A stretch of DNA of 64,000 nucleotides, from assembly GCA_973895155.1 (NCBI GenBank), contig OZ316897.1, positions 23,287,455-23,351,454 on the forward strand. Direction: 5' to 3'. The stretch is from Marsupella aquatica (taxonomy: Eukaryota > Plantae > Marchantiophyta). Positions 3,241 through 64,000 of this stretch are shown in pieces (the stretch's first letter is position 1; each line of letters opens with the position of its first letter). The position numbers and the translations under genes are program-made. Below the pieces are notes generated by a model. The model was not told where the DNA came from. It worked only from the letters and a program-made list of their open reading frames with translations, and did not search any database.

Positions 3241-3249
3241 TATAAAAGG
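3241..3249 (+). promoter_or_regulatory. Putative TATA box of family C element
   Basis: TATAAAAGG about 355 bp inside the 5' end of C, upstream of its ORF and followed by pyrimidine-rich leader-like sequence. Confidence 0.45.
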
Positions 3250-21927: not shown

Positions 21928-22383
21928 CTTCTGATTGAACTCAGGTGCTCTGGGCTTCCTCTGTCAGCACCACAACCCACGATCAGATCTGCTACCAGGA
22001 TAAAATCCAGGAGATTCCACGAGGTGCAATGAATTTGTGGTTATTTCTTGACGGCTATGTTCCCAGTGATCTTTTTACAATGAGTGTTCAGAAATGGATA
22101 GCAGACCGGTAAGCCTCTCGAGTTCTAGGGTGCATTCCTACCTCCGTCCAAAGATGTATTTTCTTGTCTCCCTTGCTCTGCTGTGATGTTTGGTACTGAT
22201 AACTTGCAAAAGTTACATGACTCCTTTCCAACTGAGAGTAACGGGTATCTGTCAAGAATGCAATGATCTTAGAATAGAATATTGAAATAATTGTGAAAGG
22301 CTTATCCAGGTATCAACAAGCTCGTTCCTTCTCCCGTATTTCACTGTACCCACAGAAAGGACAGAGTCAAGAGCCTATCGAAT

Positions 22384-29678: not shown

Positions 29679-30075
29679 GCAGAGAACTCAAACCAAAAAC
29701 AAAAGCACGTCGCCCTTGCTTCACATTGTGGCAAGTGGCAAGTGGCAAGTGATGGAGTGCGAACTGCAAAAGTGAAAACGTAACAAGCTAAAGAACTGCA
29801 GTAAAAGTAAAAAACACAATAGCCTACATCTAGACGGAGAACGACGAGAGGAACCCCGTGAGGAACCAGACATCAGATCCGGTCGAGCACAGAAGAGAAC
29901 AGGGCATTCCCTGTCACACTTCCCCCCGATCGACCACATTTGAAGAAGACAACAGCGGCAACGTTTGTAGACTCAGAAGTTGCACAAACCGACGAAAAGC
30001 TTCACCAGATAGAGGTTTTGTAAGACCATCAGCTGGCATGATTGTTGTCGACAAGTATCGAAGTGTCACAATACC

Positions 30076-34360: not shown

Positions 34361-35149
34361 GTCTTACACAAATGGAATGGTTCCAAGAAGAATCAAAAAA
34401 TTCTAGGCCCATAACCTGTGATTCGTTAGAACAAAGACACAAAATGTGCAAGACATGAGAGCGTACACGAGAGCGCTAGGAAAAGCAGTATTCAGTATTC
34501 CGTAGATGAACTGCAACTCCCCCAAAGGGCAAAGATAAAGGGCACGATCAACCCCGCAAATAGGAGAGCCCAAGCCAGGGCGCGGCAGAGAACTCAAACC
34601 AAAAACAAAAGCACGTCGCCCCGCACGTCGCCCTTGCTTCACATTGTGGCAAGTGGCAAGTGATGGAGTGCGAATTGCAAAAGTGAAAATGTAACAAGCT
34701 AAAGAACTGCAGTAAAAGTAAAAAACACAATAGCCTACATCTAGACGGAGAATGACGAGAGGAACCCCGTGAGGAACCAGACATCAGATCCGGTCGAGCA
34801 CAGAAGAGAACAGGGCATTCCCTGTCACACCATCCAACAGTCTGTTCATATTTGAACTTAACCTTTCGAGTTAAGTATGTCAATGTAATTTTTTTTAAAA
34901 CAAGTTGAACTCCGAAATAGACATAAAGATCATCACTAAAGCACTTGGAAAGGAGTTTAACTTTCAATTTCAATCATGGGTATGGACATTGGGAGTCATT
35001 GGTATCTCAGATAAACATACAAAATTGGCACCATAACCAACTTACAAGGTTGGCAATAATTTCAGGGAGACTTGCCAACTTTTCAAAAAAGCCAAGTCTA
35101 TAAAGACATGATATCCAACCTTATCGGGGTAACATGACTGTGCCACTGA

Positions 35150-38043: not shown

Positions 38044-39346
38044 GATCATCTCTCCTATGTGAGGGTTGGTGCAGGTGTTCCGGAAGAAGCCATTCTTCAT
38101 TGATGGTCCGGGGAACGACCGGAACTCTTTGTCAGGCAAGGTCTTCCTGGTATCAACCTTGGTCTTATTGCCTATCGGCAAGCCAAACACTTCGGCAATC
38201 ACCTTGGGAGTAAGATAGAAATCCTTCCCATATATCCTCGTGCAATTGGTCTCGGGTTCCCATGACCCTACGAATTCTAATAGGTCTGAATCCGGTACCT
38301 CCGGCTTCAGCCATGGTAATCTTACAAAGGCCTCTAAGCCGGATCCGGCCATGAAGCCTTGGTACTTCTTGGTCTGCATGGCCGTAAAGCATGCATCCTC
38401 CTCCCGTGCAAAATGTAGTTGCACCTCCACCGGTAGGGTTGCCGCCCAGCCTTTCCAGGTGTCATCCCTGGTTGGAATGGCATTGATGGGATCGACCTCC
38501 TCCTCTTCGGCTTCTCCCTGCCTCCTGCTCTGCTGCTCGGCTGGCTTCCTTGGTGCCGCCGACCTCGTTCTTTTTGCCGGGGTGGCTTCATCGTTGACGG
38601 CATCCTTCCTCTTCATCTCTGCTGCCGTGGAGGTTTCTCCTAGTACCGTTGCCGGGGTCCACCTTTCCGTGCTACCCTTCAATTCCCAGTGTATGTCGTT
38701 GCAATTCTTGATGGCCTCTCGAATGCCGATGATTCTGTCTTCACAAAATAGAAGATCGTCGAGCTGATTGGAAGTAGGAGTCCACAAGAACTCGGCGTTG
38801 ATGAGTTCGCCTCCTAAGAAAGCCGTCTTCTGCAGCTCCCACAATCGAGCGAGCTCCTGCCGTTCTCGAGCTGCCCTTTCTGATTCTTCGTCCTCGTAAG
38901 TCTTGATGTACTCAGTTGCCCGTTTGAACAGGCATCCCCAGAAATGTGCCGCTTGATTGACGTTGCTCATACCCTCCTTAGGTCGATCATCGGTATCTAC
39001 TCTCTCCCGGAGTGCTTGCCTAAGCAGCTGACAGTAGTTGGCCTCCCGTAGTCGTCTGCCTAGTTCGTGCTCGCAAATGAGCCACCATCTCCTGCAAGCG
39101 CTCCTTACCCCTCTCCTCTTCCGGTCCTTTCTCCCGTTGATCCTTCCTAGCCGCCGACGCTTAACGCGCCCTAACCCTAATCGAGTTTTCACCCCTAGTG
39201 TCCTTACCTCCGGCCTCGGCCCGGGTTCCATAGTCGCCCCTAATTGTTTATATTTTCCTTGTTTTGTCCCTATACTAAGGTGTTTCTAGGGTGCACTCCT
39301 GCTTTACCCACTTAACTGGCCGAGTGATTCCTGGCTAGGCATCACA
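38044..39346 (-). mobile_element. Family A copy 3, truncated (5' 1.3 kb only)
   Basis: Begins tgtgatgcctagccagg on the minus strand at 39346. The ORF matches copy 1 until ...PHIGEMI, then breaks into unrelated sequence. Confidence 0.9.
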
Positions 39347-45600: not shown

Positions 45601-47346
45601 ACGTCCCCAGGGCTGGACGTCACTGCCCCGGCCCCCGTGCGTGTTGATGTCTGCCCATGCCCAACTCTGGACAGGCACAACCTGGACCACCCGGAACTCT
45701 TCGTACCGGGTACCTTTCTAAACGGGCTTCTGGGAGATTTCTCTCATCAAATTGCCCGGGATACCGGGGAGTTCATGGCCCGGAAGGTAGCCTGTTTCTT
45801 CAATCAGGAGTTGGTTGCCGCAGTAAAGGCAGGTCGGGCCCAGTCAGAGGCCCTTCAGAGGATAGAGCGGTACCGGGTGGAGTCCGTGTACCTAAAGAAC
45901 AAAGTTGCAGCTCAAGAGGCTAAGCTTCTGCAACTACGACCCAAGGTTGCAGTCGCCGATAAGTTGTTAGCAAAGGCGCACGCTCTTACCGCCCTAGCCG
46001 AACAGGCCAAAGCTGGGAACGAGGCCGAGATTACACGACTCCGGAACCAGATTGACAGTTTGAAGAATCAAACTGTCACCTGGCATAGCGACCCGCCGCC
46101 AGTCCGAACCTGAATTCCCCCTTATTGCCTAATGATGTCCTACCCATAATGATTACCTAAGTACTGTTGTTATGCTAATAATAGCAGCCTAAGACACTCC
46201 TAACGCGCGTGCTAAGCGCAGTTAGACCGAATCACTCATTAACCGCCGTACCGGTGGCGTCACACAAAGTCTTGCCTAGTAGCACACTCCTTCGGATCCA
46301 CCAAGAGGACAAACGGAGCTGCAAGTGGACTGGCACCTACAGTCTTCATCCGCAAGGTCAATTGGGTCAAGAAATATGGTTGGATGTGTCAAACCTGGTA
46401 AATGGGCAAGCCCCTAGCCTTCTCTCTCACTGGAGGGTAAAGTTGACCAATGTCAGCCGTCACGGTCTCCTCTTGAACACCACATCTTCCTAGAATCTCC
46501 TCCTGGTACAATACCCGTGCATCCATTGACATTGATTGAGCCTTTTGCTCCAAATGCATCGGAATTTTCTCCAAAGTCTTCTTTTTTGACTTTGGAGCAC
46601 TGGGCTCGACAGGCTCAGGAGTCATAGCAGGTCGCTTCTTTGAAGAAGTACGAGTTCCAGTCGTACCTTGTGCCGACCCACCAGTCAAAGCCGTTCCCTA
46701 GGATGATCTACCAACTTGAGATCCCCCTCCAGATGCTGCTGCTTCACAGGAGGTTGTAGGCGCTACCACGGTCAAAATGTCATCGGGTAAAATGCTAGGC
46801 CTAGATCTAGAAGGAACACCGGAAGCCCCAGATTTGGGTGGACAACTTACCCCCTTCTCTACCGATCTTTTTCGGAGAATCTCTCGCAATTTTTGGATTG
46901 CACTCTTTAAAGTGCTAGCGTGAAATTCGAACACAAAACCGGAAATCTTTCCCACGATGTCGTGGTAACGTTCCTTACTCGAAAGAGACTTGACAGTCTC
47001 AATGATGCTATCAATGTCCTCATCGAGATAGCAGGTGGCAGCCATTCTGGAAAACCTCTCCACATCCACGACAATCAAAGTCAACGTTTCCTTTGTTGTG
47101 ATCAACATGTTCACAACTTTGTCGCCCCGTCAAAATACATCAATACGGACGTAATTTACCCACTGTAATGCCCCCGATGGAAGCCCCTCAAATACACACA
47201 ACATTAGGAAGGGCTTCTTCCATGTTTCCGTCCCTAAGGAAATCGTCCAGGATGAGTTGTGGAAGTCCGTCAAAGGATGGCGCGAAAATATGTCATCCAC
47301 CAGCTCTTCCTACGACATTGTCATGTTTCCGCCTGATCTTTAAAAC
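42663..47346 (-). pseudogene. ParB-like domain plus beta-class N6/N4 DNA methyltransferase fusion gene 1 (spliced, disrupted by C insertion, stops and frameshifts)
   Basis: ParB-like region YQV*HIQPYFLTQLTLRMKTVG..PFVLLVD..YYVIGANHSACA is in frame after removing 44660-46264. MTase motifs LALVDIPYG, CVW|VKDN..NNFECFTIGF, NVYQKPRALL, GDWVLDICSGSGT..SLAMGRHCIAIEID. GT-AG introns at about 43891-43819 and 43328-43225. The 5' end is approximate. Confidence 0.8.
44660..46264 (-). mobile_element. Family C copy 2 (1605 bp, internally deleted, with an inverted internal segment), TSD CAAAG
   Basis: CAAAG at 44655-44659 and 46265-46269. Termini match C copy 1 in reverse orientation, while about 45064-46085 matches the C ORF in forward orientation. 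Confidence 0.9.
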
Positions 47347-47987: not shown

Positions 47988-48123
47988 TGTGACGCCGCCG
48001 GTACGGCGGGTAATGAGTAATTCGGTCTAACCGCGCTTAGCACGCGCGTTAGGGGTATCTTAGGCCGTTATTATTAGCATAATGACAGTACTTAGGTAGC
48101 CATTATGAGTAGGAAATCATTAG
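47988..48123 (+). mobile_element. Family C 5' terminal fragment
   Basis: tgtgacgccgccggtacggcgg...attagcataatgacagtacttagg matches the first ~135 bp of C. Confidence 0.85.
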
Positions 48124-48175
48124 TATCAGCCTATTCATTAAAAGTGTATTTTCTTTTGTTCACAAATCAGTCCTG

Positions 48176-48255
48176 AAATGTACACTTTTATGTCCCCAAA
48201 TGTACACTTTAAGAAGCCCAAATGTACACTTTTTGATACCTAAATGTACACTTTA
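48176..48255. repeat. Four spaced copies of aaatgtacacttt (candidate subterminal repeats of a DNA transposon)
   Basis: The 13-bp motif is repeated four times at about 22-bp spacing, downstream of the HAD gene. Confidence 0.6.
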
Positions 48256-48495
48256 TAGGCCAAATCTTATTAGTATTATATTAATTATAATAGTATTATA
48301 TTACTTATTAGTTCACAAAGAACCATGGGATAGAGATCATACTTGTAAAAACATTTACGCACAAAGAAGCCTAAGCAAGGACCATTGATTGATAATGTGT
48401 GAAATAATTATATATAATTGTGTCCAAACTTACAATGAATATCCAGGGCTGGCACCCATTTTTACTATCTAATGGGCTTAACATGAGTCAGATCT

Positions 48496-49535
48496 CTAAA
48501 CAAAGTGCTCCTTACAATATTTATTTGAGCACGTGCCCTTGTCTCCTTTACTATCTACCCTAATGTCACGGTTGCAACTCCCTTTATCTTCAGGGAGATG
48601 AAATTTGGTGGTGTTGTTCCTAACTGCTATAATCTCCCGCAAAAAGTGTCTGGGATTTTCTCTATACAGACCTGAATATTCCCGTCCTACAAATGATCTA
48701 GCAAGTGAGGTGACAAGTGCATCGTCAAGTTCCACCGCAGGACGTAAGCTACATATACGTTGCTTCACAGCCCAAGGAATCTCATTGCTATTGAGGTCCA
48801 GCACACTATGCCTATACTGTGACTTCCAAATTTTTGCTGCACATCTCTTACTAAGTTGATCATAAGTAATCTCATTTTTTGCCTTGTCTCTCTTAATGTG
48901 CAATAGAGACCACTTTGGAGAGTTTAGGAGAAGATAACAACGAATGTCACTTGCATGTGACAGTTTCTCAAGACATGGCCAAAGAATTGTTAGAAGAAAA
49001 TTGTCTCCACGATTGGCATGCGTGTAGGGCACTGGAAATAGTCCGGTCATGTCTGGGTTGGCAAATGCCTTCAAGGGGGAGTCATCCACAAGGAGTGTGT
49101 TGGTTTCATCATATAGATTTCCAAATGCACTCCATACCACCCGAAAATCCTTCAATAGCACATTTGCCTTTCCATTTGTAATGTCACACCTTTGAATGCC
49201 TGTGTCAAAGGCTTCCACCTATGTGAATACAAACTTCAGTTTCAACCGCTCCTCAACAGTGAACATCATGTTCAACATTTTCACTGTCCGCGGCATCCCA
49301 GCACATGTCCAAATTGCAACGTCAAACCGGTCAAAAACCAACTTTAGAAACTCATGGAACCCTGGCCTCTGTGTATACATGCGACTAGTTCCATTTGATC
49401 TATCCCAATGCACTCCATTTGGGGTCACAATGTTTCTGGATTTGCCCTTGCTTTGGAATTCAAGTGAATCCCAAAGTATTTTGTTAAGATCCAAAATCAA
49501 CAACTTCCGCTTGATGGGACAAGGTCTCGATTCTG
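48496..49535 (-). pseudogene. FCP1/NIF-like HAD-superfamily phosphatase with one in-frame stop
   Basis: KLLILDLNKIL, RPGFHEFLKLVFDRFDVAIWTCA, LLKDFRVVW, NTLLVDDSPLKAFANP. ORFs 49219..49665 and 48496..49218 are separated by a single TAG. Probable splice acceptor ttgcag near 49533. Confidence 0.8.
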
Positions 49536-52354
49536 CAAGTGCAACAAATACAACTCTTAGAAAGAAAACCAAATTTGAACTTTGGACTGAGATTGTCTCA
49601 GTCCAAAAATACAAGACAATGACTAACAACAAAGAAAACCTACATACCATTTTTAGAAGCCCCAAAGAGCGTAGGTGGATATCGAGGCTCTAATTGCTGA
49701 CCGCATTCTGTGAGACCGAGAAGTATTTTAGATTGGTATGAAAAAATGGAAAGTCAGACGGTTTGATCTCAGTCTGAAAAAAGAGATCCGTATTCATCAA
49801 TAATGTCAACACCCAGCTCCTCTTGGATTTCAAAATTGACATCTGAAGTACTTTGTTCTACCCAATAAGGTGACGTCCAAACAGGAGTTATCAATCCCAA
49901 TTCTCCTCTCTTATACTCCTTCCTGTTAAGAATCGATGGAGCAGCATCCAATGAAACTTCTTGGCCTCTATTTGGCCCACTTTTCCACACATAACATCGT
50001 GCATCACGTTCAAGTGACCTCCATCTGGTTGATCCAACTCTATTCCCTTTTTTCTTTGAGAGAGGAAGGACAACTGGACTTCCCGAGTGTGAACGAACAA
50101 AAACCAATTTGTCATCAGAAGCTGAAAAGAGTGTGTCAGGACAAATTGAAGCACCTGCCTGGTTGTCAACAGTCGCTGATGCACGGGCTTCTGGGGTCAT
50201 GGGAATCTCACGTACTTCGACAGCCGTCCCGGGAATCAAATTTTGGGTGTCAGCTTCATTCGAATTGACCTGTCTGTCTCCACCGTCCGCGACCAAATTG
50301 GTTGACGAACGATTTTCAAATGTATCAATGTCAATCGGATCACCAATTCCGTCCGTTTCTCGTTGCACCACATTTGGATTGAGACCATCCTTGTCCAAGT
50401 TGTCATCAACCTCAACTTCATAGGGTTCCAAAGGGACGTCATCTGCACGTGATGAAGGGCGTGGTGCAAGACCAAGGTTATCATCAACATCGTAGGGTTC
50501 TATGCTTTCACTTTGACCTACACGGTCATCCAAATTCTTTGCATACGCCACCTCTGATGCCCCATCATCTTTGACTGACTTAGCGCCCACTTCTTCGGAA
50601 TTATCAGCTGATTCATGTTCGGTAGAAACATCCGTAATAGTGGGTTTCCAATGCCTAGAACTCCCACCACGAGGATCCCAATTTTCCTTGATTGAGGGGA
50701 CCCTCTCGCAAAGGAATGAAGCATACGCTTCCACAAAGTGTCTCTCATCTTGAGAGTCATAATAAACAAAGCATTCGCGTTGCACCAAGAATGCTGTCTT
50801 CATCACTTGACCACCCGAGAAAAAATCAAGAATCAAGTCTCCAGCTTCTGACAAGGATTCAATAATCCTCTGTATCATCCGCGTGGGTTTGGCATGTGGA
50901 TTCACCCAACCACCACGAGCACCAACTATCTCAAATCGAGGGGCCATGTGCAAAACCTTGGTCGCCTCTTCTGGGGTCAGCATCATTTTTAGATCTTCGG
51001 GTTTTGACACGTCGTCTGTGTCAACCTTTGCCTTCCCAGTGTCAATCTTGGTGACCTCAAAATCAGTATCTTTTGAACCAAAAAAGAATTTTGGCTTTGG
51101 ATGATTGGGTTTGAAAACATCATTCCAATTCACATTTTCATCTCGAGAAATTCCTGCGAATATAACTTCTTCAATTCCGCCTCCCCAACACGAATCAAGC
51201 GGGTGCGGTTGATCCTCTCGAGAATAACTCCCATACTCAATGTGAATGGTGAGAGATTTCTCTTGTCCCAATTTTCGAAGTGAGCTTAGGACATTCATTG
51301 CAAGAGGCCCCGAATGAACAGTTATGGCTACAACGATTGTAAGATTTCGTGGTAGCTCCACAATGTATTGCAGAAAGACCAAAACTTCTGCTTCCGTCCA
51401 CAGCTTCTGGTGATCTCGACTGAAGTCAACAATGGCAAGTGAGCACGTTGGAGATGATTCTTCTATTGCTGGTGGATCAACTGTTTTCATTAGATTGTCA
51501 CTAAAGAACGTGACCCACGGTTGGCTCCGAGAATGTGTCCCTCCGCCAAACTTCTGGCAATAAATGTCATCAAGGCGCATCACCAGAGCTATTGGCAAGA
51601 TTGCACTCTCCCTGGTATGATTTGGCTTCAACAGATTTGACAAAAAAACTTCACCAGCCGCTCTTCTGCATCTACTGAATTCTGCGTCAACACTCAACAA
51701 TGGCAGAACCTCTACAACTTTCTTCCAATCGGTATCCGAAGGGAAATTCCTTGGATCCTTGCCGAAGTAGTACTCCTCAATGAGAGACTTGAGCTTCCTC
51801 ACTTTTTTCACATCCTTCGCAAGCTCCTCTATTGAGGGTATGTCAGATTTATTTGTGGCATCTTTCTTCAGCAATGCCTTTCCTGACTTCACTTGTGTCA
51901 GGATTTTTGTGATGTCTTTCTGTGAGATCAACTCACCATCAAAGGGACGAAACATGGCAACGGTAATTGCTTTTTCGGAGTTGTTATTTCCTTCCATCCC
52001 AGCTCCATCAGGAAGTTTCCCATGCAACCACATCTCACAGACTAACCGCCACAACTCAAAAAGATCGTTGTCCGCAAAAAGTAGCCAGTATACATTTCGC
52101 AAGTCCTTCCTGCCCATAGTCATTCTTGCCAGAGCCAACCAATCCTACAATCCAAAAGGAAAGCTAGTCAGTTATCCCCAACGCAAGGGTTGGAAAAAAA
52201 GGATTCTAATGTGCGATAATAGTATTGGATTCGGATGGTCTCAATCAAAAACAAAACTCGTACTAAACATTCCAAAAGTTCCAATACTCTTTGACAAATC
52301 GTGTCGGACTGAGACCATCCGAATCCAAAATAGAATTACTCTCTATGGTAGAGA

Positions 52355-55300
52355 TGTGGTGCGTCCCATGGCTCCCTAAACCCAAGAAACCCCCCAGCTC
52401 AAGCCGATTCCCGCAGGTTTCGTGCTTGGCGAGGCCGTTTCCGCGGCTTAGCGGCATGGGACGCTGCTAACCTTCTACTACTACTATTAACATTTTACAC
52501 ACATATACTGGACAGATCCTTCATCGGGTCATGAGATACGTAGCCGGCCTAATATAGGCCTTCCCCTGTCTTCCCCTGTCTTCTTGTTAGGTATGTTTGG
52601 ATTCCGCCGCCGGAATGATCCCCAATAGGCTTGGTTAAGCCGCTAAGACCTCTCTCAGCTCGACACATCCAACTCTCACTCCCCTGCTTACTTTCCTTCC
52701 TTCTGTTGATGTGGGCACTCTTCACACAAGTTAATGCGACACACAAATAGCAAAATGACTCATTCTGACTGAGTCATACCATGCACTTGCCATACAAACA
52801 GTACATCTCATACACAAGTTCTGCGAACTAAGCCGTGAGGCCAACTCTATTCAGCTCTTAGGCATGAGGAAACATGAATATACACAAGGGTCACTGTATG
52901 ACTAACCGAGAGCTTCTCGTACTACTTGATCCCAGCCCGGCTGGTGCAAACTAAAAACTTGCTAAAGAAGAGGCCCTGAGCTCCCCGCTGCCCAGGTACT
53001 TATCCTGGTAGTGGATCCGCCATTCTTTGCATCGTAAGCCTAATCTACCTGACAGTAATCTACTTGCCCGAATCTACCTATGTACAACAAGGCAGGAGCA
53101 CAAGTGTTGCTCCTACCAGTGGGACCGCAATCCCACTAAGCTAAGTGTCAGGGCCGCTCCTGGTTCTGATCCTAATCCTAAACGTGGAGATCCGTGCCCG
53201 CCCTGCCCACTCACGCCTCCTCCCTCCACGTCCGCCCTCCCTAAAAGGAACGGCGCCCTTGCACCGTCACGACACCGGTGGTGGATCCTCAATGGACGCC
53301 CCCAACACTTCCTCCTCAGCCACTACCGTTGGCCCGCCTACTGACAGATTACCTGCCCTTGACCGAGTCAACTCTCCATCGGCCTGACTGGGTCCACCTT
53401 CGGCTTCAGCCTCAACACCGGCCTCGGCAATACCCACGGCTTCGGCCTCAGCCACTCCCACGGCTTTGGCCTCCCCTTCCCCTAGGGTAGTTGGATCCTT
53501 AGCCGTGACCCTGTCTGGGGTCGGTGCTGGGTCTACCTCCTTGATCACCACGGCCTGTGAAGTCGTATTACTCCTTGACCCTGAAGGTTTCCGCTTCTTC
53601 TTCGTTGGTGGCTCGGCAGCTGGTCCCTTCCCCTTCCCACTTACTTCCGGCACTGGTGCAGGTGGCGCGGCTTGTCCTTCGGCAATTACCACCCCTGGTA
53701 ACTGGTTTGTCCCAACGGGAGATGGACCTGCTGCAGCTAAGCATTTAAATACTGCAGCTTGTTTCTTCAGCCGCTCTGTTTGGTTGTCGGCCCGCCGCTG
53801 TAGGTTCTCCATCTTCCTCGTGATTTCCTCCAACTCCTCTTGGGTTTCATCCAGGTCCTTACGTGCCCCCTCCAGCTCGTTTTTGGCCTCCTCCTGCTCC
53901 CTGTGGGCTTCCTCCAATTCCTTCTTCAAGGTAGCCCTCTCCTCCTGGGTTGCTCTTAGCTCCTTGTCGAGCTCTGCAATGATGACAGACTCCATCTGGT
54001 TCATCTTGGCGTAAGTCTGTTCGAGCATCTCGTCCTTCTCCCTTAGGTCGGCCTTGAAGCTGGCCGTCAGGGACGCAAGCTCCTGCTGCAGCGCCATAAT
54101 CCCTTGATAGGATTTCCCTAACTCGACCTCCTTCTGCTCAAGGGCTCCGCGGATTTTCTCGAGCTCCCCTTTCAACGCCCATTCCTTTCTTTGGGTCTCC
54201 GCCATGGCCCGGCTGTTGGCTGTTATGTGGGCCTCCTCTGTATTCTTCAGCTCTTGCTTCCACTTCTCCCTCTCTTTGATCGTGTCGGCCAACTCTTCCT
54301 GCGTCTGAGTCAGTTTATCCTTGATATTCTGATTATCAGCCTGCGCGGCGTCCAACTGCCCCTGCATGATGTTCAGCTCATGTCGTTTAATCCGCAGTTC
54401 ATCCAGGGCTTTCTTGGCCGCCCTTAGATCTTCAATCTCAGCTTCCATCCTCCTAAGCCGTCGAATGACCTCGTCCTTCTTGCTTCTCTCTAAAGCCACC
54501 GCTTCTTCTAATTGGTGCTTCTCCAACTGCTCCCTATGGAAAAAGGGTCCTATCTCCAACTCCTCTCCAAAGATGCCGAGCGCAAGTTCCCCACACATCT
54601 CACCATACTCCATGGCTCTATTCTTAGCGTAGGTGGAGTAAGTAGAAGTGATCGGCATCGCCCATCGTGGCCTCTGCTCCCAAGCCGTCCTGCGGATCTC
54701 TTCAATCGTGGCTAGAGGTTTGCTTCCTTTTTCGGCTAGCCGCCTGATGTCCTCCGGCCAATCTCCTCCTGGTAAATCCTTTTCCTTAGCCAGGGCGGCC
54801 TCTTCCTCCTGCTTGATTCGCTCCTGAAATTCCTGCACCGTCTGTTTTATGCCGTCGAAGCTCGGGGGAGCAACATCTGGTGGGGGAGACTCAGGGCTAC
54901 TCTGCTGGTTGGGGTCCCCTCGCACTACCCTTGGAAGTGTGGGGACAAACCGGCCACAGGTCCTTACTCCTGGAACGTGATGGTCCGACCCATAGCCGGA
55001 ATTATCATGGCTGCAGTCCTCCACTGCCTCCTCTACCTCTTGGACGTCCGGCTTCTCCCTCTCCTCTTCGTCGGTAGGAGCTTCAGGCAATTCTGCCTCA
55101 GATTCGGAGCTTGAGGTTCCCACGTACATTCGAACACCTGGCTTGGATTCCGGCCTGATTCTCTCCTTGTTTCCAGCAAAGGGGTTTTCTCTTGTGAGCC
55201 GGTGTAGGCCTACCTCTGTAGTAGTGTCCTGCATTGTTGCCGTTGCCGTTGTTGTTGCCGATGCCGATTTCTTTTCTTTCTCCAGTAGTTTCAGCAGACT

Positions 55301-56981
55301 CTGCATGCCTGGTTGCTGCATCGGCAAGTCTTCCTTCCTGGGCCTAAACACCTGCTCGATCGTAGGACTAACAGGTGGTTGAGGTTTCTCAGCCAACGGC
55401 CTCGGCGTTGGAGCTTCCTCGGGTGCCCTTACCTGCAGGGGAAGTACCGGGGCAAAAGTCTGACCTCTGGCATACCGGCACAACAGCGGCATGTGATAGC
55501 CAAGCCGCGACACGCTCCCCATGCCGATTACCTGCTGCTCCTCCTTTAAGATCTTCTTCAATTGGTTGAGGAGGTACCCGTTGTAGTCCCGGCTTGGGTC
55601 TGGCCTTTCTGCCAGATAGACCTGTGCCTTGCCGATCTCTGCCCTCGGCAAGTTACAATGCATGGTCACCCGCAAGAAGTCGATCATCTCTCCTATGTGC
55701 GGGTTGGTGCAGGTGTTCCGGAAGAAGCCATTCTTCGTTGATGGCCCGGGGAACGACCGGAACTCCTTGTCAGGCAAGGTCTTCCTGGTATCAACTTTGG
55801 TCTTATTGCCTATCGGCAGGCCAAACACTTCGGCAATTACCTTGGGAGTAAGATAGAAATCCCTCCCATATATCCTCGTGCAATTGGTCTCGGGTTCCCA
55901 TGACCCCACGAATTCTAATAGGTCTGACTCCGGTAACTCCGGCTTCAGCCATGGTAATCTTACAAAGGCCTCCAAGCCGGATCCGGCCATGAAGCCTTGG
56001 TACTTCTTGGTCTGCATGGCCGTAAAGCATGCATCCTCCTCCCGTGCAAAATGTAGTTGCACCTCCACCGATAGGGTTGCCGCCCAGCCCTTCCAGGTGT
56101 CATCCCTGGTTGGAATGGCCTTGATGGGATCGACCTCCTCCTCTTCGGCTTCTCCCTGCCTCCTGCTCTGCTGCTCGGCTGGCTTCTTTGGTGCCGCCGA
56201 CCTCGTTCTTTTTGCCGGGGTGGCTTCATCGTTGACGGCTCCCTTCCTCTTCATCTCTGCTGCCGTGGAGGTTTCTCCTAGCACCGTTGCCTGGGTCCAC
56301 CTTTCCGTGCTACCCTTTAATTCCCAGTGTATGTCGTTGCAGTTCTTGATGGCCTCTCGGATGCCGACGACGCTGTCTTTGCAAAACAGAAGATCGTCGA
56401 GTTGATTGGAAGTAGGCGTCCACAGGAACTCGTCCTTGATGAGTTCGCCTCCTAAGAAAGCCGTCTTCTACAGCTCCCACAATCGAGCGAGCTCCTGCCG
56501 TTCTCGAGCTGCCCTTTCTGACTCCTCGTCCTCGTAAGTCTTGATGTACTCAGTTGCCCGTTCGAACAGGCATCCCCAGAAATGTGTCGCTTGATTGACG
56601 TTGCTCATACCCTCCTTAGGTCGATCGTCGGTATCTACTCTCTCCCCGAGTGCTTGCCTAAGCAGCTGACAGTAGTTGGCCTCCCGTAGTCGTCTGCCTA
56701 GTTCGTGCTCGCAAATGAGCCACCATCTCCTGCAAGCGCTCCTTACTCCTCTCCTCTGCCGGTCCTTCTTCCCGTTGATCCTTCCTAGCCGCCGACGCTT
56801 AACGCGCCCTAACCCTAATCGGGTTTTCACCCTTAGCCTTACCTCCGGCCTCTGCCCGGGTTCCATGGTTGCCCCTAATTGTTTATATTTTCCTTGTTTT
56901 GTCACTATACTAAGGTGTTCCTAGGGTGCCTTCCTGCTTTACCCACTTAACCGGCCGAGTGATTCCTGTCTAGGCATCACA
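52355..56981 (-). mobile_element. Family A copy 4 (4627 bp), TG...CA, TSD AGAGA, inserted in intron 2 of ParB-MTase gene 2
   Basis: AGAGA at 52350-52354 and 56982-56986. Nearly identical to copy 2. Its ORF (56866-53267) has one TAG at 56468. Confidence 0.95.
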
Positions 56982-58721
56982 AGAGAAATGCATACAAAGT
57001 AATCACATTTCTTACCTGAAATTTTTGGTTGTCTTGAGCATTTGTTTTGTTGTCGCCATGTTTTGGTTTGTCTGGATTTCCACATTCAACAAACTGCCGC
57101 CTCGCATGGACAACTGTATCTTTAAAGCAAGACTGAAACACCATCGTGCTATTGATGGCGTTCGATCTCATGGAGTGCTCAACAAGAATTGAAGACGGTG
57201 TGCGATCAGACAATATTCTGGATTTCCTGAATTCTAACTTCTTGGCCAACTGGGTGAGCTTGGCATCCTTTGTTGCCCAATCACGAATCCATCTCGCAGC
57301 TCTCGTAGAGTGCTGACCACTAACGGCTAGAAATTGGACCTCGCCCTTTTTCACTCCGGCCAAAAAATCCTTCCGGTCCGACTCTGTATTCTCAAAGTGG
57401 AGTACCTTTCTTCGCTCGACGTTAAAAGGAATCAAATCAGCGACATGTGGCTCATGCCCAGGTGTTTTGATCATGGAATCAGCAATGTCTTGCACATGAT
57501 CAAAATTCATCATCCGATAGCATAGTCTCGCTGGTGCGGCAAAAATACTTTCAACTGGGATCAGAAAAATTTCGTTTATCCCAAAAGTATAGTACTGCTC
57601 CATTTGTTGAAGAACTTCATTCCCTTCTAAGACGTCTTTCTCCTCTGGAGCATGTAGCCTATCACCCTCATCTTCAGCATGTAATGAAAAATCTACAGGA
57701 GTTGAATTCACAACTCCGGTGTCGGTTTTTTGTTTCTTCTTCTCCCTCGACTTCTTCTCGGCTGGAAGCTTCTTCTTCTCGGTTGGAAGCTTCTTCTTCT
57801 CGGCTGGAGCCGTGATCTTCTTCTCAACTGAAGTAGGTTTCTCAACCAGAAGCTTCTTCTCCCTCTGCTTTCGCTTCCCTGCCGCTCTATCCATGGTTGT
57901 TGCTGCAGTAGTTTGTGTTGTCTCCGTCGTAGTTGCTGGAGTTCCTTTGGCTGGCGTAGACTCAATTATTTTCTATGGTTGTGTACTTTTCCTCAACTTC
58001 ACCAAAGACTCTACCCATAGATTTGCTTTTTCCAGGTCAAGCGTGTGTGCAAAGGCTAGTGCCTTGGCGATCCAAACATTTGAGTCTGGTGACACCAGAC
58101 CTGCTTTCTCAAGCAAATTGTTAAGAGTCCATGTGGATGGAAAAGAGAACTTTGATGGGTTGTTTACAATGTTGAGTTTCAAATAAAGAAACCCATAAAA
58201 AATGTCCAAAGGAAGCATTCCCTTCAGTCCTCCAATAATCTTCTCCTTTGTGTAGGATTTTGGAAAGAATCCCATCGACAACACACTTAATTCCCCACTT
58301 GCATACCATTCCACATTGAACTCGGCCGAGAAAGCCTTTGTGGGGAGCTGCAACTTTGCCCACCTCATCGTGTCCGACACCTCTACAATGATAGAATTCA
58401 TTCCTCTTCCTATCATTCCCACAGAGACCACGGGTCCGATGACCAATGTTTGGTTGTTGCCTGTCCTGATCTTGACACATAACACTGGATCCTGAATGTT
58501 AAATGAATTCAGGCGGAAGTTAACTCGCGAGAACTCAAGTCCCTACCGAAATCCTGGATCGCGGTCCTCCAAAATGAGCCCATCGTCGCAGTCTGCCTCT
58601 GAAATGGCAAGAGTTGTATTCACCAGATCACTCTCTGCATAGGAGAGTGAAAATTCATATTAGACTTCAAATCCATGAAATTTGTTTTAAGAAATCACTG
58701 TCAAAGTGAGATTGAAGGCTC

Positions 58722-59295
58722 TTGGATTCGGACCATCCGAATCCAATACAAGAAGCCCACTTGGATTCGGATGGTCCGAATCCAAACAACCCTCTTAGAT
58801 TCGGACCATCTGAATCCAATCAAGCCACTTGGATTCGGATGGTCCGAATCCAAACAACCCTCTTGGATTCAGACCATCCGAATCCAATCAAGCCACTTGG
58901 ATTCAGACCATCCAAATCCAAACAACCCACTTGGATTCGGATGGTCCGAATCCAAACAACCCTCTTGGATTTGGATGGTCCGAATTTAAACAACCCTCTT
59001 AGATTCAGACCATCCGAATCCAAACAACCCACTTGGATTCGGATGGTCCAAATCCAAACAACGCTCTTGGATTCGGACCATCCAAATCCAAACAACCCAC
59101 TTGGATTCGGATGGTCCAAATCCAAACAACCCTCTTGGATTTGGATGGTCCGAATTTAAACAACCCTCTTAGATTCAGACCATCCGAATCCAAACAACCC
59201 ACTTGGATTCGGATGGTCCGAATCCAAACAACGCTCTTGGATTCGGATGGTCCGAATCCAAACAATGCTCTTGGATTCGGACCATCCGAATCCAA
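58722..59295. repeat. Array of 17 copies of the 25-bp palindrome TTGGATTCGGA-(CCA/TGG)-TCCGAATCCAA, 34-bp period
   Basis: Copies start at 58722, then 58761 and every 34 bp to 59271. Linkers are 9 bp (acaacccWc-like). Confidence 0.95.
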
Positions 59296-59589
59296 CAACT
59301 TAAGATGCATGAATAAACCTCTGGGAACTTACTTTGGACTTGAGATTGAAATTCTTGGGAATCCCTAAGCGCTAGGGCCACAAGATCACCGACAGAGGAG
59401 AGATCCAAGTCATCAAATTCTTCGGCGAGAAGGACAATGACGGTTTTCTTGGCAACTTCCATTTTTAGGAGTGACACGTGGCAGGATATACTGAGGACAC
59501 GTCAAGATGGGCAAGATCTAGGGCGTTGCAGCAGATTAGGGCAAGAAGGCAATTAGGGCAAGGGCAAGGGATAGCGGCGGCAGCCAGCC

Positions 59590-59720
59590 AAGAGCGAGAG
59601 CGAGGAGCGAGAATGAGGAGCTAGAGCGAGAGCGAGGAGCGAGAGGGAGGAGCTAGAGCGAGAGCGAGGAGCGAGAGGGAGGAGCGAGAGGGAGGAGCGA
59701 GAGTGAGGAGCGACAGAGAG
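59590..59720. repeat. GA-rich low-complexity repeat (gagcgagag/gaggag) in a probable divergent promoter or 5'UTR region
   Basis: Tandem gcgagag variants between the two divergently oriented genes. Confidence 0.7.
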
Positions 59721-60489
59721 AAAACAACAATGAGGTCTGTGGAAGACCTCGTCCTCCCTTTACCCCCTCCTGAAAGGCTTGTTTGCGTACGGATGATCGC
59801 TGCACGGATCATCTCTGTACGGATCATCTCTATACGGATAGAGACCAAGAAGGGATCTGGTCCTATCAGTTTGGGTGGGACGCTAGCTGTATTGTCTAAC
59901 ACAATGGATTGAAAAAGGATTGGATGATTGTTCTAACCGCGATACTCGGTGTTGCCTCAACCTTATCGGATCGCACATTCAGGGCCGAACATACCAACCC
60001 ACGAGTATAAGAGGTACTCTACAGACATCATTGTTGTTTTAGTTTCATATCTTCACTTGGGCATCCAGGTCTGCGCAACTCCTCCTCAGCTCTTCTCTCT
60101 GATGGAGTTTAGACTTGAAGTGACTTTGATAGCTTTCTTAGTCAGATTGATATGAACTTATTCATCAATTTAGAGGTAGCAGAGCCAACCTTGGAGACAT
60201 ACTGGAAAAACAAGACTGCTGAGGTGAGTTATGGTCTTAGTCGCTTTGCTTATTTTGAGTTCTTAGGGAAGAGAGACGAACCCTTTCACTTTGTTCTGCA
60301 TTCTAGTGACTTCCCAATTATTATTTCACGAATTACCCAATGTTCCGAAAAACCCGGAATGTCTAAATTTGATTAGGAAGAGATCTCAATCTCAATATAT
60401 CCATCTCAACATAATCTTCATTGTGGAGTTAGACCATTTGAATCCAGACTTGATGTGTGGATTATAATGGTCCTAATCCTAGATTGTTG

Positions 60490-61550
60490 TTTGGATTTGG
60501 ATGATCCAAATCCAATCCATTTCTAGGATTGGGACCATCTGATCAGATTCCAATCTTGGTTTGGATTCGGATGGTCCGAATCCAAGAGGGTGTGTTGGAT
60601 TCGGACCATCCGAATCCAACCGTGCAATGCTTAAATTGTGACCTTTGGGATCCAATCTCGGTTTGGATTCGGACCATCCCAATCCAAGCGAGATGGTAAA
60701 TACAGTCTGGTTTTTGATTTGGATGGTCCGAATCCAAGAGGGTGTGTTGGATTCGGACCATCCGAATCCAAGCGTGCAATGCTTAAATTGTGGCCTTTGG
60801 GATCCAATCTCGGTTTGGATTCGGACCATCCCAATCCAAGCGAGATGGTTGAATTTGGGCGTTTTAAATACAGTCTGGTTTTGGATTCGGATGGTCCGAA
60901 TCCAAGAGCGTGTGTTGGATTCGGACCATCCGAATCCAAGCGTGCAATGCTTAAATTGTGACCTTTGGGATCCAATCTCAGTTTGGATTCGGACCATCCC
61001 AATCCAAGCGAGATGGTTGAATTTGGGCGTTTGAAATACAGTCTGGTTTTGGATTCGGACCATCCGAATCCAAGTCCGATGCTTAAATTGGGACCTTTGA
61101 AATACAATCTTCGCGCACCATCCCAATCCAAGCCGGTTTGTTGAATTGGGACCTTCGGGATAGAATCTGTGTTTGGATTCGGACCATCCGAATCCAAGAT
61201 GGTGGGTTGGATTCGGACCTTTGAAATACAATCTGGTTTTGGATTCGGACCATCCGAATCCAAGCCCGGTGCTCAAATTGGGACCTTTGAAATAAAATCT
61301 GGGTTTGGATTCAGACCATCCCAATCCAAGCGCGTTTGTTGAATTGGGACCTTTGGGATCCCATCTGGGTTTGGATTCGGACCATCCAAATCCAAGAGGG
61401 TGTGTTGGATAGAGGTTGGTTTGGATTCGGACGATCCCAATTCAAGCGAGATGCTTAAATTTGACCTTCAGAATAAAATCTTCATGGTTTTGATTTGGAC
61501 CACCGGCCCCAATCCAAGCGTGATAGTTGAGCCAATGTTTGGATTCTCAG
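60490..61550. repeat. Second array of the same 25-bp palindrome in higher-order units of about 155-165 bp
   Basis: Roughly twenty ttggattcgga-nnn-tccgaatccaa copies or variants, interleaved with repeated linkers (gcttaaattg, aatacagtctggtttt). Confidence 0.9.
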
Positions 61551-61640
61551 AATGGCAATCAAATGACCGTATGGATAATTGTGAGTCTCTTCAAATTCTT
61601 GTCATTCGGATTTGTGATGGTTTTTCTGAAAATTGTGCAG

Positions 61641-63285
61641 GTTACTAAATCCGAGAATGACTAGAAGGTTTTCAAGAGGTGATGATGTGACCTTGACAAT
61701 TGATGGAGATGATGTCGGTTGTGGGACAGTTCAGAAAATTAACCCCCAGGATAGGGTGCACAACATATTGTTGGGGGATAATCGAATTGGTGTGCTCATG
61801 GAGAAGGTTTTCGAGCCAACTCGAAAACTACCATTTCCACTACCAAGGGTAGAAAATCTTTTTGATGCCATTGACTCATGTGTTATTTGGGAGATCTCGT
61901 GCGCGTATCTCTCTATAACTCTAGATTCCCAAAAACGCATCAGTACTGGTAGTTGTTCAACTCGACCAGATAATAACTTGGATAAATCTCCTACAATTGT
62001 TATGGAGGATGCATCAAACACTCTAAGGCAAGGGGACGAGGTTGAAATGCTCATTGATGGGTGTTGTGTAGCCCTTGGAGTTATTTTCAAGGTAAATCCA
62101 AAGGACCGATGTCACAACATATTACTTGGTGAGTCTCGGATCAGTGTGAAAATCACTGATGTTATTCATGGTAGTAAGGCTTTACCTTACATACACAATG
62201 GGGCTGAAACAATTGAAGAGACAAAAGACTCATGGGTTCTCTGGGACTTGGCCGATGTTCATAAAAAAGGTTGGAATGTTGATGAAGGTAGAAAGTCTTC
62301 CTCTAAGAAGCAAGGTGATGGCGACGTTTTAATTGAGGAGAGTTTTGTCTCACATTCTCCATCAACAAAATCGACCAAAACTCATTCTGATTATTACCAA
62401 CGGTCCAATTGGATGTCAGAGTTGGTCGAATTATACATTGGTTCAGGACGATCGAGTAAGGTTGCCACTGGGACTATCACTGTGCCTCAAGCAACGGCGG
62501 CTGTTGATGATGAAATCCTGGGAGAAGACTATGTAGGGGTTGTTGTGAAAGATGTCATGGAATCGCAATACTTTCCAAGCATTCACAAGGGAGTAATTAG
62601 TTTGGTTCGATGGCGAATTGATCACACAAAACTAGTAGCAACTGGAAAAATTTTGTCAGACATTCTGGTAGAAGGTACAGAGAATATGGAGTCAATGGAT
62701 AGGGATGATCTGAATCCGGATCATGTGGTTGGATCCGCATCCGGATGTCGTCAAAGGCCATATAACTTCAACAAGAGGAATCAAGTTGATCCTGTTGAGA
62801 AGAAAAGGAGGCTCTTGCAAACCAAGGCAGTTTCAAAAACAACAGAAGCCGCAATTGATGAGATCAAAAGAGTAAATTGCTGCAAGCATAAATGTTGTCT
62901 CATTATGCCAAGGGAAGATATAGAAGATGTTAGGATGGAATTTCACGGGATGTCTAGCGAGTCCAAAACATCACACATTTTCAACCTCTTCCACTACAGA
63001 GAGGATGATGTTCGTGATAAGGGACACCATGTTCTCAAAGGTATGGTCATCTGTAAAGATGCATTTGCAACCATCCATGGTTTTAGTCACACCAAGTATT
63101 ATGATTACAAGAGAAGATACATGGAGGGTTGCAAAATTGGGTTCCATGGGAACACAGGCTTGAAGAAAACAAGGTCAAATACCTTGCATGCGCGAGCTCT
63201 TCTAGAGGCATTTCTGACTCAAAATGCAGAGCCAATGCCTCATATGCCTTATGGAGGGGCCCATGGGACAGACAGCATTGAGTAT
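61641..63285 (+). CDS. Putative DNA transposon protein: three TNP1/TnpA-like domains followed by a Sola-like (DUF7869-associated) transposase N-terminal region; interrupted by family B
   Basis: Three repeats of G.V...dp...hn..LG.....V....V......LP; then CCKHKCC..EDVRMEF..VICKDAFATIHGFS..FHGNTGLKK..AEPMPH. Acceptor tgcag at 61640. The catalytic core is not in the window. Confidence 0.55.
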
Positions 63286-64000
63286 TGTCACGCGATTGAC
63301 ATGGGTCTTAACACCAAAGACGTCACTATGGGTGCCAAAACCATCTCCTTGTACCTGAGGATCACGAAGGGATGCTGTGAAGGCAGGTAAACACCAATTT
63401 ATGCCCTTAACACCAGAATATCATAACAAGACTCCGTCACACATCACCCAAGCTCAATCCCTAAGAACCAAGGTTGGGAATCAGATCCGCGCTCATGATA
63501 GTTCTGGTGAGAAGGAGTCTTCATATCGGGCCCGTACACACAGGGCCTAGCGCTACGATGCGCATAGGTCTATACGTATGCTTACTGTCATAGGTATGTT
63601 TCTATTCCGCCGCCGGAATGTACCCATAAACCAGTGACTCTTGACTGATTCCCGGCTTAGGGACTTCTAAGCCATTGCCCCACCACTCTGCCATTCCACT
63701 CTCAGCAATCAGAGCTATGACAGTCCTCACCCAGCCCGCTTCAATGCACCCTGTACACCTCTCAGTGGCGCTGCTAGTCCCATCATACACTTAGATTGCC
63801 TCACACACACACACATCCATGAGAGAAATGAGGCTTGAGAGGAAAACTCAATTAGATTCAACAATGTGCACAATAGTTCACTGAGAACACTTGATCCGAA
63901 CAATAGGCCCGAAGGCTGTCTACTCCAGATTGCAGTGTGCTTGCCCCGCAAGCCCCATGCTTGCCATGCAAGCTCAATCCTGAACCTGAGCCCGACTCAC
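63286..64000 (-). mobile_element. Family B copy 2 (cut by the window end)
   Basis: tgtcacgcgattgacatggg... closely matches 4081-4797. The expected TSD is AGTAT (63281-63285). Confidence 0.9.

Follow-up and report, generated by a model that had tools for sequence, protein, structure and literature searches.

The window analysed here is a stretch of 64,000 nucleotides from the liverwort Marsupella aquatica (contig OZ316897.1). Its right-hand part, positions 48125-63285, is occupied by a plus-strand transposase gene which is divergent from a methylase-like accessory gene on the minus strand, by a phosphatase-like gene located behind the latter, and by a palindrome that is common to both sides, a layout that is probably that of a single element. 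The segment is probably a dead, right-truncated copy from a family of giant cut-and-paste DNA transposons of a bryophyte-like land plant, with a transposase of the DUF7869 type as the mover. It measures more than 15 kb here and carries the accessory gene on the strand opposite the transposase; the start codons of the two divergent genes lie approximately 2.2 kb apart and are accompanied by arrays of 17 and 16 palindromes. The initial annotation had proposed a cut-and-paste element of more than 11 kb, listed at 48125-64000. A piece of a large, multi-copy, DNA-transposon-like element is indeed present, but the copy is dead: both minus-strand genes contain in-frame stops, the accessory gene holds an insertion of 4.6 kb and the transposase is truncated. 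It also stops short of the window's edge, as the transposase homology ends at 63285 and the sequence 63286-64000 belongs to an abundant repeat, here called C.

The transposase gene and its relatives

The transposase gene (61657-63285, plus strand) consists of the N-terminal 543 codons only, which encode three TNP1-like repeats, a zinc-finger-like motif (CCKHKCC) and a conserved region that extends to ...GTDSIEY. A homologue search aimed at longer proteins gave none for this open reading frame (ORF), before an exhaustive phmmer search of 1.84 billion representatives returned 175 relatives at E<=1e-3, 76 of them at E<=1e-10 and 25 at E<=1e-30; the named ones come from the liverwort Riccia sorocarpa. 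Members of the family are 1100-1250 amino acids long, and the full-length proteins P0018 (1250 aa), P0022 (1143 aa) and P0030 (1101 aa) align from the ATG at 61657 to ...GTDSIEY at 63285, after which they continue with RLPSCF... for a further 550-700 residues. The window ORF ends at 63285 and the catalytic core is thus missing from the window. PF25273 (DUF7869) is matched at E<=0.01 in 10 of 15 long relatives scanned, eight of which score above the cut-off, and is without a match in the other five; in nearly all relatives carrying the domain it is located downstream of the part that aligns to the window. Alignment to these relatives shows the plus-strand gene to be, by its predicted product, the N-terminal half of a transposase of the DUF7869-type family. 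The relatives share the conserved core blocks IIHDKMDQ, DNSGKDNKN and GHTHEDVD, and the motifs HDKMDQ, DNSGKDNKN and GHTHEDVD have the look of a DDD/E core. A profile search of the transposase alignment against the PDB gave no match at E<=5, and no paper naming DUF7869 was found in the literature searched. ORF 3302-4153, at the other end of the window, has no similarity to the transposase ORF.

The N-terminal part of the plus-strand ORF contains three related repeats of about 85 residues, the second and third of which are 37% and 27% identical to the first. They match PF03017 (TNP1) weakly in the window (E 0.0012) and better in the relative P0088 (E 6.4e-7), and by these matches the repeats are classed as TNP1-type. 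Domains of this TnpA/TNP1 type (PF03017) are found at the N-terminus in En/Spm (CACTA) transposons, which also carry many short, binding-site-like subterminal repeats in both orientations. Like En/Spm, the window element combines a transposase N-terminus with TNP1-type domains and many short repeats. Unlike En/Spm, its arrays are situated between two genes and not demonstrably at the termini, and the catalytic domain in the relatives is DUF7869 and not TNP2. The initial annotation had described three TnpA-like repeats followed by a Sola-like ORF; the three repeats and the TNP1 match bear out the first part, and for the Sola label there is a likeness of pattern to Sola2. In the portion of the Sola2 paper available (PMC3627910, Additional file 10), SDGxxxQ[YF]KN can be set beside DNSGKDNKN, and SHGKxxCDG beside GHTHEDVDA, a by-eye pattern only, whereas the first block is DFAENY in Sola2 and HDKMDQ in the window relatives, and TNP1-like N-terminal repeats are not part of that alignment. 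Sola2 elements pick up accessory genes (Fanzor) and have 4-bp target duplications (PMC3627910). A 'Sola-like', and then probably Sola1-like, affiliation of the transposase is plausible as a reading of these motifs.

The accessory gene, the phosphatase-like gene and the palindromes

The divergent minus-strand accessory gene encodes a protein of approximately 1,400 amino acids. Its predicted first exon (59336-59470, MEVAKK..., with the ATG at 59470, a donor near 59336 and an acceptor near 58651) is in frame after splicing; the homologues P0011 and P0012 begin later and lend this exon no support. The exon 57016-58542 encodes an N-terminal domain, a Lys-rich linker and a putative ParB-like domain (SGQHSTRAA), and is interrupted by an in-frame TAG at 57973-57975. 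It is followed by an intron (52145-57015) with the donor CAG/GTAAGA at 57016/57015 and the acceptor TTGTAG/GAT at 52145/52144, which shrinks to about 240 bp once a nested insertion, here called B, is removed. The last exon (49769-52144, 791 codons) is composed of a helical domain, a beta-class amino-methylase fold with DFSR as motif IV, an acidic linker and a conserved C-terminal beta-rich domain. The Calypogeia protein P0002 runs across the exon junction, from ..HARRQF..DNKTN.. (ORF 56977-57972) straight into ..YWILFAED.. (ORF 49769-52144), and P0011 and P0012 are continuous, without a stop, through the N-terminal domain (ORF 57976-58542, 34% identity), the Lys-rich linker and the next domain. 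The spans of these three proteins make the minus-strand ORFs one gene, and since P0011 and P0012 are uninterrupted there, the TAG at 57973-57975 is a nonsense mutation of the window copy. A second stop at 58543-58545 is not counted, and 58546-58650 is not claimed as coding, because this piece is unaligned to the homologue N-termini.

At the sequence level, the last exon shares limited similarity with known methylases. ORF 49769-52144 matches PF01555 at E 8.9e-6 with 26.2 bits, just below the gathering score of 26.7, and its nine homologues score 19.6-25.9 bits, so that none of the 10 proteins scanned reaches that score; the match is limited to profile positions ~161-215 of 221, the region of the S-adenosylmethionine (AdoMet) motif. 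In the predicted model (pLDDT 57 overall, 70-90 within domains), residues 206-503 adopt a beta-class amino-methylase fold when compared by VIA. CcrM is the best match (Z 18.2, root-mean-square deviation (rmsd) 3.5, 216 residues aligned), followed by RsrI, BceJIV and MboIIA (Z 16.0), bdelloid N4CMT (Z 15.0) and PvuII (Z 14.9). Every one of the 11 best-scoring chains (Z 13.8-18.2) is a beta-class methylase or a Mod subunit, and MT-A70 enzymes come next at Z 8-11. Foldseek likewise gave 32 PDB matches at E<=0.001 for the last exon, led by MboIIA, CcrM and RsrI. Like CcrM, M.RsrI, M.MboIIA, M.PvuII and bdelloid N4CMT (Z 14.9-18.2, 198-216 aligned residues), the model has the permuted order of the fold, in which the strand LAIVD (236-240) precedes DFFSGGQV (440-447). 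The latter belongs to AdoMet motif I: the family profile NPxAKP...DFFSGGQV aligns to M.RsrI residues 224-272 (E 8.6e-6), where the enzyme reads HPTQKP...DFFAGSGV.

The catalytic motif IV, (D/S/N)PP(Y/F/W), is not found. At its position, assigned from the alignment and by strand order in the model, the window protein reads LAIVD-FSR (DFSR), and among the 10 aligned members, nine of which cover the site, eight have DF[SGT]R and one DLAR. A metagenome scan with the methylase alignment gave a single locus (L001, 1,802 bp), which has DFAR. All 10 members that cover the site (10/10) thus differ from beta-class methylases in carrying DF[SGTA]R or DLAR, and differ also in that the domain is part of a transposon-encoded protein of about 1,400 residues. 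Placed on the predicted fold, the alignment shows the methylase catalytic motif to be lost across the family; the predicted methylase fold is kept, with classic amino-methylation unlikely. In L001, the frame 208-1641 holds an in-frame stop (..SKND-stop-RSTF..). In Calypogeia fissa, which together with Riccia sorocarpa supplies the named relatives of the proteins studied, the methylase-like family comprises six gene models on at least four contigs.

The C-terminal ~110 residues of the accessory protein (49769-50100, minus strand) are conserved and beta-rich and may form a chromo-like or Royal-family-like domain. In a viral fold search, ranks 29-30 are taken by giant-virus chromodomain proteins (E 0.014, 109 columns, rmsd 3.7). 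Bdelloid rotifer N4CMT is a host beta-class methylase fused to a chromodomain, and a chromo-like C-terminus would be a parallel to that fusion.

For the domain of ORF 56977-57972, which has four homologues at 42-54% identity, the balance tilts modestly towards a ParB-like nature. Its conserved SGQH(S/L)xxAA resembles, by eye, the GxxRxxA box of ParB. By language-model features (Atlas) DUF3723 is nearest (score 0.93, 168 shared features), and with DUF3723 left out, ParB_N clusters account for 11 of 30 matches at >=0.9, with only 117-127 shared features. A phage ParB/Srx-methylase fusion is also present among the fold matches of the downstream part of the protein, at rank 6 with 473 columns aligned. 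DUF3723 is an auxiliary gene family of the fungal Starship giant transposons and could in its turn be a module of ParB-like type in giant transposons; no paper linking it with ParB was found in the literature searched. A single-sequence phmmer search of the PDB with the putative ParB-like domain returned only chance-level matches to picornavirus capsids (E 0.018). The ParB-methyltransferase-like gene of the initial annotation therefore stands as far as its methylase part is concerned, with the PF01555 match and the fold (CcrM, Z 18.2), whereas the ParB part is without support from hidden Markov models or fold comparison.

The phosphatase-like gene lies 80 bp downstream of the methylase-like gene and was correctly recognised at the outset as a minus-strand HAD phosphatase. 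It is a NIF/FCP1-like (HAD) phosphatase pseudogene (48496-49689, minus strand) made up of two ORFs in the same frame, 48496-49218 and 49219-49689, which are parted by an in-frame TAG at 49219-49221. PF03031 is matched on both halves at E 1.1e-6 (28.8 and 28.9 bits, cut-off 21.8), the two together covering profile positions 1-64 and 90-160 of 160, and a weak PDB match is to UBLCP1 (E 0.045). Phosphatases of the NIF/FCP1-like HAD type have their catalytic DxDxT at the start of the domain. In the window copy, a pseudogene, profile positions 1-10 read LILDLNKIL, so that DLNKI stands in place of DxDxT, and both changes are transitions. With DF[SGTA]R or DLAR as motif IV in 10/10 methylase-like proteins that cover the site and DLNKI in the phosphatase, the enzymatic role that had been envisaged for this cargo is doubtful.

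The most conspicuous feature of the intergenic and intronic DNA is a 25-bp palindrome, TTGGATTCGGA-NNN-TCCGAATCCAA, which occurs 33 times where none would be expected by chance. Seventeen sites form array 1 (58722-59295) with a strict period of 34 bp. By the predicted splice sites this array would lie within the first intron of the accessory gene, or else in its 5' region. The other 16 form array 2 (60491-61445), upstream of the transposase start codon, with spacings of 34 to 124 bp. Across the whole window none of the 33 canonical sites is found outside the two arrays, and none in 1-49000. Two hybrid sites (52225-52249 and 52304-52328) are located within the large intron of the accessory gene, and a variant, TTGGACTGAGA-TTG-TCTCAGTCCAA (49582-49606), in the 5' intron region of the phosphatase gene. 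This variant pairs 11 of 11 arm positions although its arm has three changes from the canonical one, each of them compensated in the other arm, and the compensation speaks for constraint on the two-fold symmetry itself. With variants included, the palindromes are confined to 49582-61445 of the 64-kb window. The claim that one 25-bp palindrome ties both sides together is thus upheld, with 33 sites in the two arrays and three more in introns of the minus-strand genes. By analogy, the accessory protein is a likely binder of the palindrome rows, which would be its candidate site. Two further repeats had been noticed beforehand and are present as described. The spaced repeat AAATGTACACTTT has four exact copies at 48176-48254, 22 bp apart, none elsewhere in the window and 0.14 expected by chance. 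GA-rich tandem repeats of 13/19 bp (family D7, 10 copies) occupy 59565-59733 in the divergent promoter region.

Copies, boundaries and competing explanations

Eight public runs from six studies contain parts of 48100-52200 (word shares 0.64 to 0.09). The contigs over the region (Logan) are only ~120-450 bp long, and their depth, which comes without a single-copy baseline, is not equal to copy number. Run X1 contributed 21,822 contigs mapped to 44.5-64 kb and run X3 38,850, with identities from at least 99% to below 90%; in X1 the classes from >=99% down to <90% hold 6,882, 7,405, 5,676 and 1,859 contigs. When X1, X3 and X5 are pooled, the phosphatase, methylase-like, ParB-like and transposase regions are each represented by near-identical contigs (0-2 differences, depth 900-1,500) and by ones that are ~88-90% identical; among the contigs listed no single run covers all four regions at both levels. 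All parts of the element are multi-copy in the public runs. Transitions make up 69% of the differences in X1 (574 of 832 places), which is the pattern expected for silenced repeats. The junction between the phosphatase-like and methylase-like genes is crossed by diverged contigs in run X2 (record 14, 49453-49804, 45 differences and 4 gaps, ~87% identity) and in X3 (record 22, 49657-49794, 10 differences, ~93% identity), and since these span the 80-bp gap between the genes, the adjacency is inherited among copies. As to whether the genes stay linked in other copies, the phosphatase-methylase pair does, and none of the contigs listed spans the stretch from the ParB-like gene to the transposase gene. 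We infer that the three genes travel as one element. In X5, the 94-bp bin 48076-48169 has a summed depth of 4,439 against 55 and 99 in its neighbours, and 49298-49391 one of 49,115, which implies that short pieces of the left arm are separately very abundant in the organism of that run.

The left terminus is placed at 48125. The candidate left end (48125-48263, plus strand) holds the four subterminal AAATGTACACTTT repeats; collinearity with repeat C breaks at 48124/48125, and one X3 contig (record 17) begins exactly at 48125. The flank outside the element (47988-48124, plus strand) is recognised by similarity to other C copies as the first 137 bp of C (TGTGACGCC...), being 81% identical to 2886-3023 and 90% to the inverted 46129-46264. 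Where two other C copies read CATTAG followed by (T/G)(T/C)AATAAGGGG, the copy at this junction reads CATTAG followed by TATCAGCC. Before 47988, dozens of contigs carry unlike sequence (10 in X1, 27 in X3, 24 in X2 and 11 more at 47987; agreement 0.37-0.57), and this pile marks 47988 as a terminus of repeat C and not of the element. The possibility that 47988-48124 is the transposon's own terminal repeat was considered and is less likely, as two other copies continue with matching sequence beyond position 137, where this one breaks; its start, moreover, resembles repeat B, with the TG..CA ends and habit of 5-bp target duplication. The members of repeat C in the window are 2886-4794, 46098-46264, 47988-48124 and 63286-64000. 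Two of the C starts (46264 and 47988) face away from each other, 1.7 kb apart. The start of C, TGTGACGCC, resembles that of B, TGTGATGCC, and both repeats contain a 35-bp motif, palindromic at its core (TAGGTATGTTT..ATTCCGCCGCCGGAATG), which occurs at 4388, 52588 and 63591.

On the right, 63286-64000 (plus strand) is an internal part of C whose order and orientation agree with those of 47988-48124. It is 95% identical to 4081-4794, which are positions ~1196-1909 of the C copy that starts with 2886-3023. As both flanks are collinear pieces of one repeat C, an insertion into C followed by one deletion is the simplest history. The element would have landed within a C copy, after position 137, and a single later deletion would have taken out the rest of the element, from transposase codon ~543 to the right terminus, together with C up to position ~1195. 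The initial annotation had pictured a different geometry, in which the element is intact beyond the window, with a separate insertion at 63286 flanked by the target duplication AGTAT and with the core and right terminus past it. AGTAT is indeed present at 63282-63286, within the transposase frame (..SIEY), and again at 48121-48125, and one X1 contig joins 45838 to 63286 (side 26, weak), so that 63286 may be a repeat boundary. Yet 63286-64000 corresponds to C positions ~1196-1909 and not to the start of C, and the first 137 bp of C abut the other side of the element (47988-48124) in the same orientation. Both junctions follow from one deletion within a C copy; otherwise two chance events would be needed. 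An intact element with a separate insertion is therefore unlikely, if still deserving some weight, and the junctions point to a deletion at 63286 more than to a simple insertion. In that event the missing transposase core may not lie beyond 64000.

Several observations weigh against the reading of 48125-63285 as one transposon copy with a ParB-like and methylase-like accessory gene. The transposase core is absent in the window copy and its presence is deduced from the relatives. Within the window, which stops at 64000, there is neither a terminal inverted repeat nor a target duplication nor a second end, and contigs with unlike flanks pile up clearly at 47988 and not at 48125 (among 24 of 308 loose ends listed). 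For the putative ParB-like domain, no Pfam match was obtained in five of five family members, even at E<=10, a profile search of the PDB gave no match, and the weak AlphaFold model built from five sequences (pLDDT 42.6) reached at best a VIA Z of 3.2 and a Foldseek E of 0.27. Riccia has the transposase family, yet no Riccia protein is among the matches of the methylase-like search, so the gene pairing may not be universal, and the metagenome locus L001 (1,802 bp) is too short to show neighbours. The depth is also uneven: in X1 the summed depth of the phosphatase region is 14,000-53,000 against 1,300-3,100 for the ParB-like, array and transposase regions, a 5-10x difference, and in X1, X3 and X2 alike the depth drops near 50150-50240. 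Some of the left arm may consequently come from a distinct repeat of higher abundance or from deletion derivatives; the profile would be expected from derivatives that keep the left arm and also from a separate abundant repeat. Finally, among the contigs listed none bridges the divergent region from the ParB-like gene to the transposase gene.

The last two points are the core of a rather improbable alternative, in which the locus is a mosaic: an abundant repeat would contain the phosphatase gene and the 3' end of the methylase-like gene, other repeats would contribute the ParB-like/methylase-like gene and the transposase fragment, nested insertions and deletions would have brought them together, and the palindromes would be a local satellite. 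The 5-10x higher depth over 48452-50200 than over 57500-62700, with its step near 50150-50240 in three runs, fits such an origin, as does a window dense in nested repeats (B, C and a copia element) in which no listed contig bridges the divergent region. However, the methylase ORF is uninterrupted across the depth step, deletion derivatives of a DNA transposon would likewise raise the copy number of one arm, and the phosphatase-methylase junction is kept in diverged contigs. The palindrome and its compensated variants, moreover, accompany all three genes, in introns or 5' regions, and are absent from the rest of the 64 kb. A second alternative, and a highly improbable one, regards the methylase-like and phosphatase genes as normal nuclear genes of the host, for example of a liverwort DNA-modification pathway, that merely neighbour a broken transposase gene. 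Both genes have introns, and liverworts do have host beta-class N4-methylcytosine (4mC) methylases such as Marchantia DN4MT1, as described in the available part of the preprint (bioRxiv 10.1101/2021.02.12.428880). But both genes carry in-frame stops (49219-49221 and 57973-57975), they are represented by hundreds to thousands of contigs at 85% to >99% identity in single runs, the methylase-like gene models of Calypogeia are six and dispersed, the metagenome relative likewise carries a stop, and no family member covering the site retains the catalytic motif.

Known giant transposons and the surroundings of the element

The combination of genes had been thought undescribed, but comparable ones have been published for Sola1-1_Ec32 (PMC12477816) and for Plavaka (bioRxiv 10.1101/2025.02.11.637652), to judge from the available portions of these two reports, to which the comparisons below also refer. 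Sola1-1_Ec32 is a 21.5-kb giant Sola-1 transposon of the brown alga Ectocarpus with a ParB-like and DNA-methyltransferase gene opposite the transposase (PMC12477816, Genome Biol 2025). The accessory protein exceeds 1,000 amino acids, has a methyltransferase domain of the N4C/N6A type and is proposed by the authors to bind and modify its own element; the termini are AACCG..CGGTT with a 282-bp imperfect terminal inverted repeat and a 4-bp target duplication, and the best blastp match is the Sola1 transposase Sola1-1_PPa (PMC12477816). Like Sola1-1_Ec32, the window element is giant and has an opposite-strand accessory gene for more than 1,000 amino acids with a methylase and a ParB-like part, the two being likened by description only. 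Unlike Sola1-1_Ec32, it resides in a land plant, has a third, phosphatase-like gene linked to it, has lost the methylase catalytic motif family-wide and carries two arrays of a 25-bp palindrome that flank a divergent promoter.

The red-algal Plavaka elements, of the EnSpm lineage, carry the accessory genes PAG1-3, of which PAG2 combines PF01555 with SET and PAG3 a ParB-like N-terminus with a 2OG oxygenase; PAG3 is adjoined by tandem inverted-repeat arrays that are proposed to be its own binding sites (bioRxiv 10.1101/2025.02.11.637652). The window element resembles Plavaka in its methylase-type and ParB-like accessory functions and in the inverted-repeat arrays near the ParB-like gene. It differs in that the transposase is of another superfamily, that the methylase and ParB-like parts are at most fused to each other, and that it has a phosphatase gene, none being reported for Plavaka in the portion of the preprint at hand. 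With an accessory gene opposite the transposase, inverted-repeat arrays and multiple copies, the layout of the window element is that of giant transposons with ParB-like/methylase accessory genes. As far as the searches show, such accessory genes of giant DNA transposons are in print so far only from algae; no paper on such elements in land plants was found, the bioRxiv supplements and figures, which may bear on the point, being outside the literature search. The design is known from algae since 2025, and what is new here is that it is seen in a land plant, that a phosphatase gene is linked and that the methylase motif has been lost throughout the family.

Giant DNA transposons increasingly turn out to carry ParB-like and methylase-like accessory genes, and a land-plant family would extend the class to embryophytes. 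The family-wide motif loss suggests DNA binding, rather than methylation, as the conserved function. The accessory protein may bind the palindrome arrays through its ParB-like module, as is proposed for the algal elements, and would then work as a DNA binder, not as an active methylase, on the chromatin or the transposition complex of its own element; the phosphatase-like protein may be a second helper. This mechanism, palindrome binding by a binder rather than a methylase, is one that we infer. The initial annotation's 'counter-silencing toolkit' is a conjecture about the cargo. In its most elaborate form, which is a long shot, Sola1-like land-plant transposons would carry a conserved three-part module for self-protection: a ParB-like clamp would load on eukaryotic 'parS' palindromes at the bidirectional promoter and spread, the dead methylase would serve to read DNA by base flipping or as a decoy for host methylation marks, and the FCP1/NIF-like phosphatase would act on the carboxy-terminal domain of RNA polymerase II/IV/V, keeping the element transcribed or out of RNA-directed silencing. 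If true, a bacterial partition-type DNA clamp would have been re-used against silencing in plant nuclei. The window copy itself is only a relic, but the 33 palindromes and the compensated variants are a simple, testable candidate binding site, and transformable liverworts offer a tractable system for what such proteins do for a transposon.

The nested insertion B (52355-56981, minus strand) is a 4.6-kb TG..CA element flanked by the 5-bp target duplication AGAGA at 52350-52354 and 56982-56986. It is 98% identical to 25019-29678 and 91-93% identical to 7924-12595, with a partial copy at 38044-39346. Copies of 4.6-4.7 kb share the short terminal inverted repeat TGTGRTGC and 5-bp target duplications. 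No other sequence in the runs comes close to repeat B in abundance, its summed contig depth being 350,000-1,100,000 in X1 and X3. Its ORFs, encoding a 1066-residue coiled-coil protein and one of 150 residues, match no Pfam family, and it could be either a solo long terminal repeat left by a giant retroelement or a type of element in its own right. That the sequence at 63286-64000 is an insertion of this same element is ruled out, as 52300-53010 and 63300-64000 share only the 35-bp motif.

Other repeats lie elsewhere in the window, the content of which is eukaryotic and plant-like. The B copy at 25019-29678 is situated within a sequence (24846-25018 and 29679-29919) that recurs at 34417-34830 beside a copia-type element (30076-34363), and the two matches to 34417-34830 overlap by 5 bp, as is expected of a clean 5-bp target duplication of B. 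Amid these repeats, 19063-21963 (minus strand) encodes an intact, intronless pentatricopeptide repeat (PPR) protein of 966 amino acids with E, E+ and DYW deaminase domains, of the organellar RNA-editing factor type.

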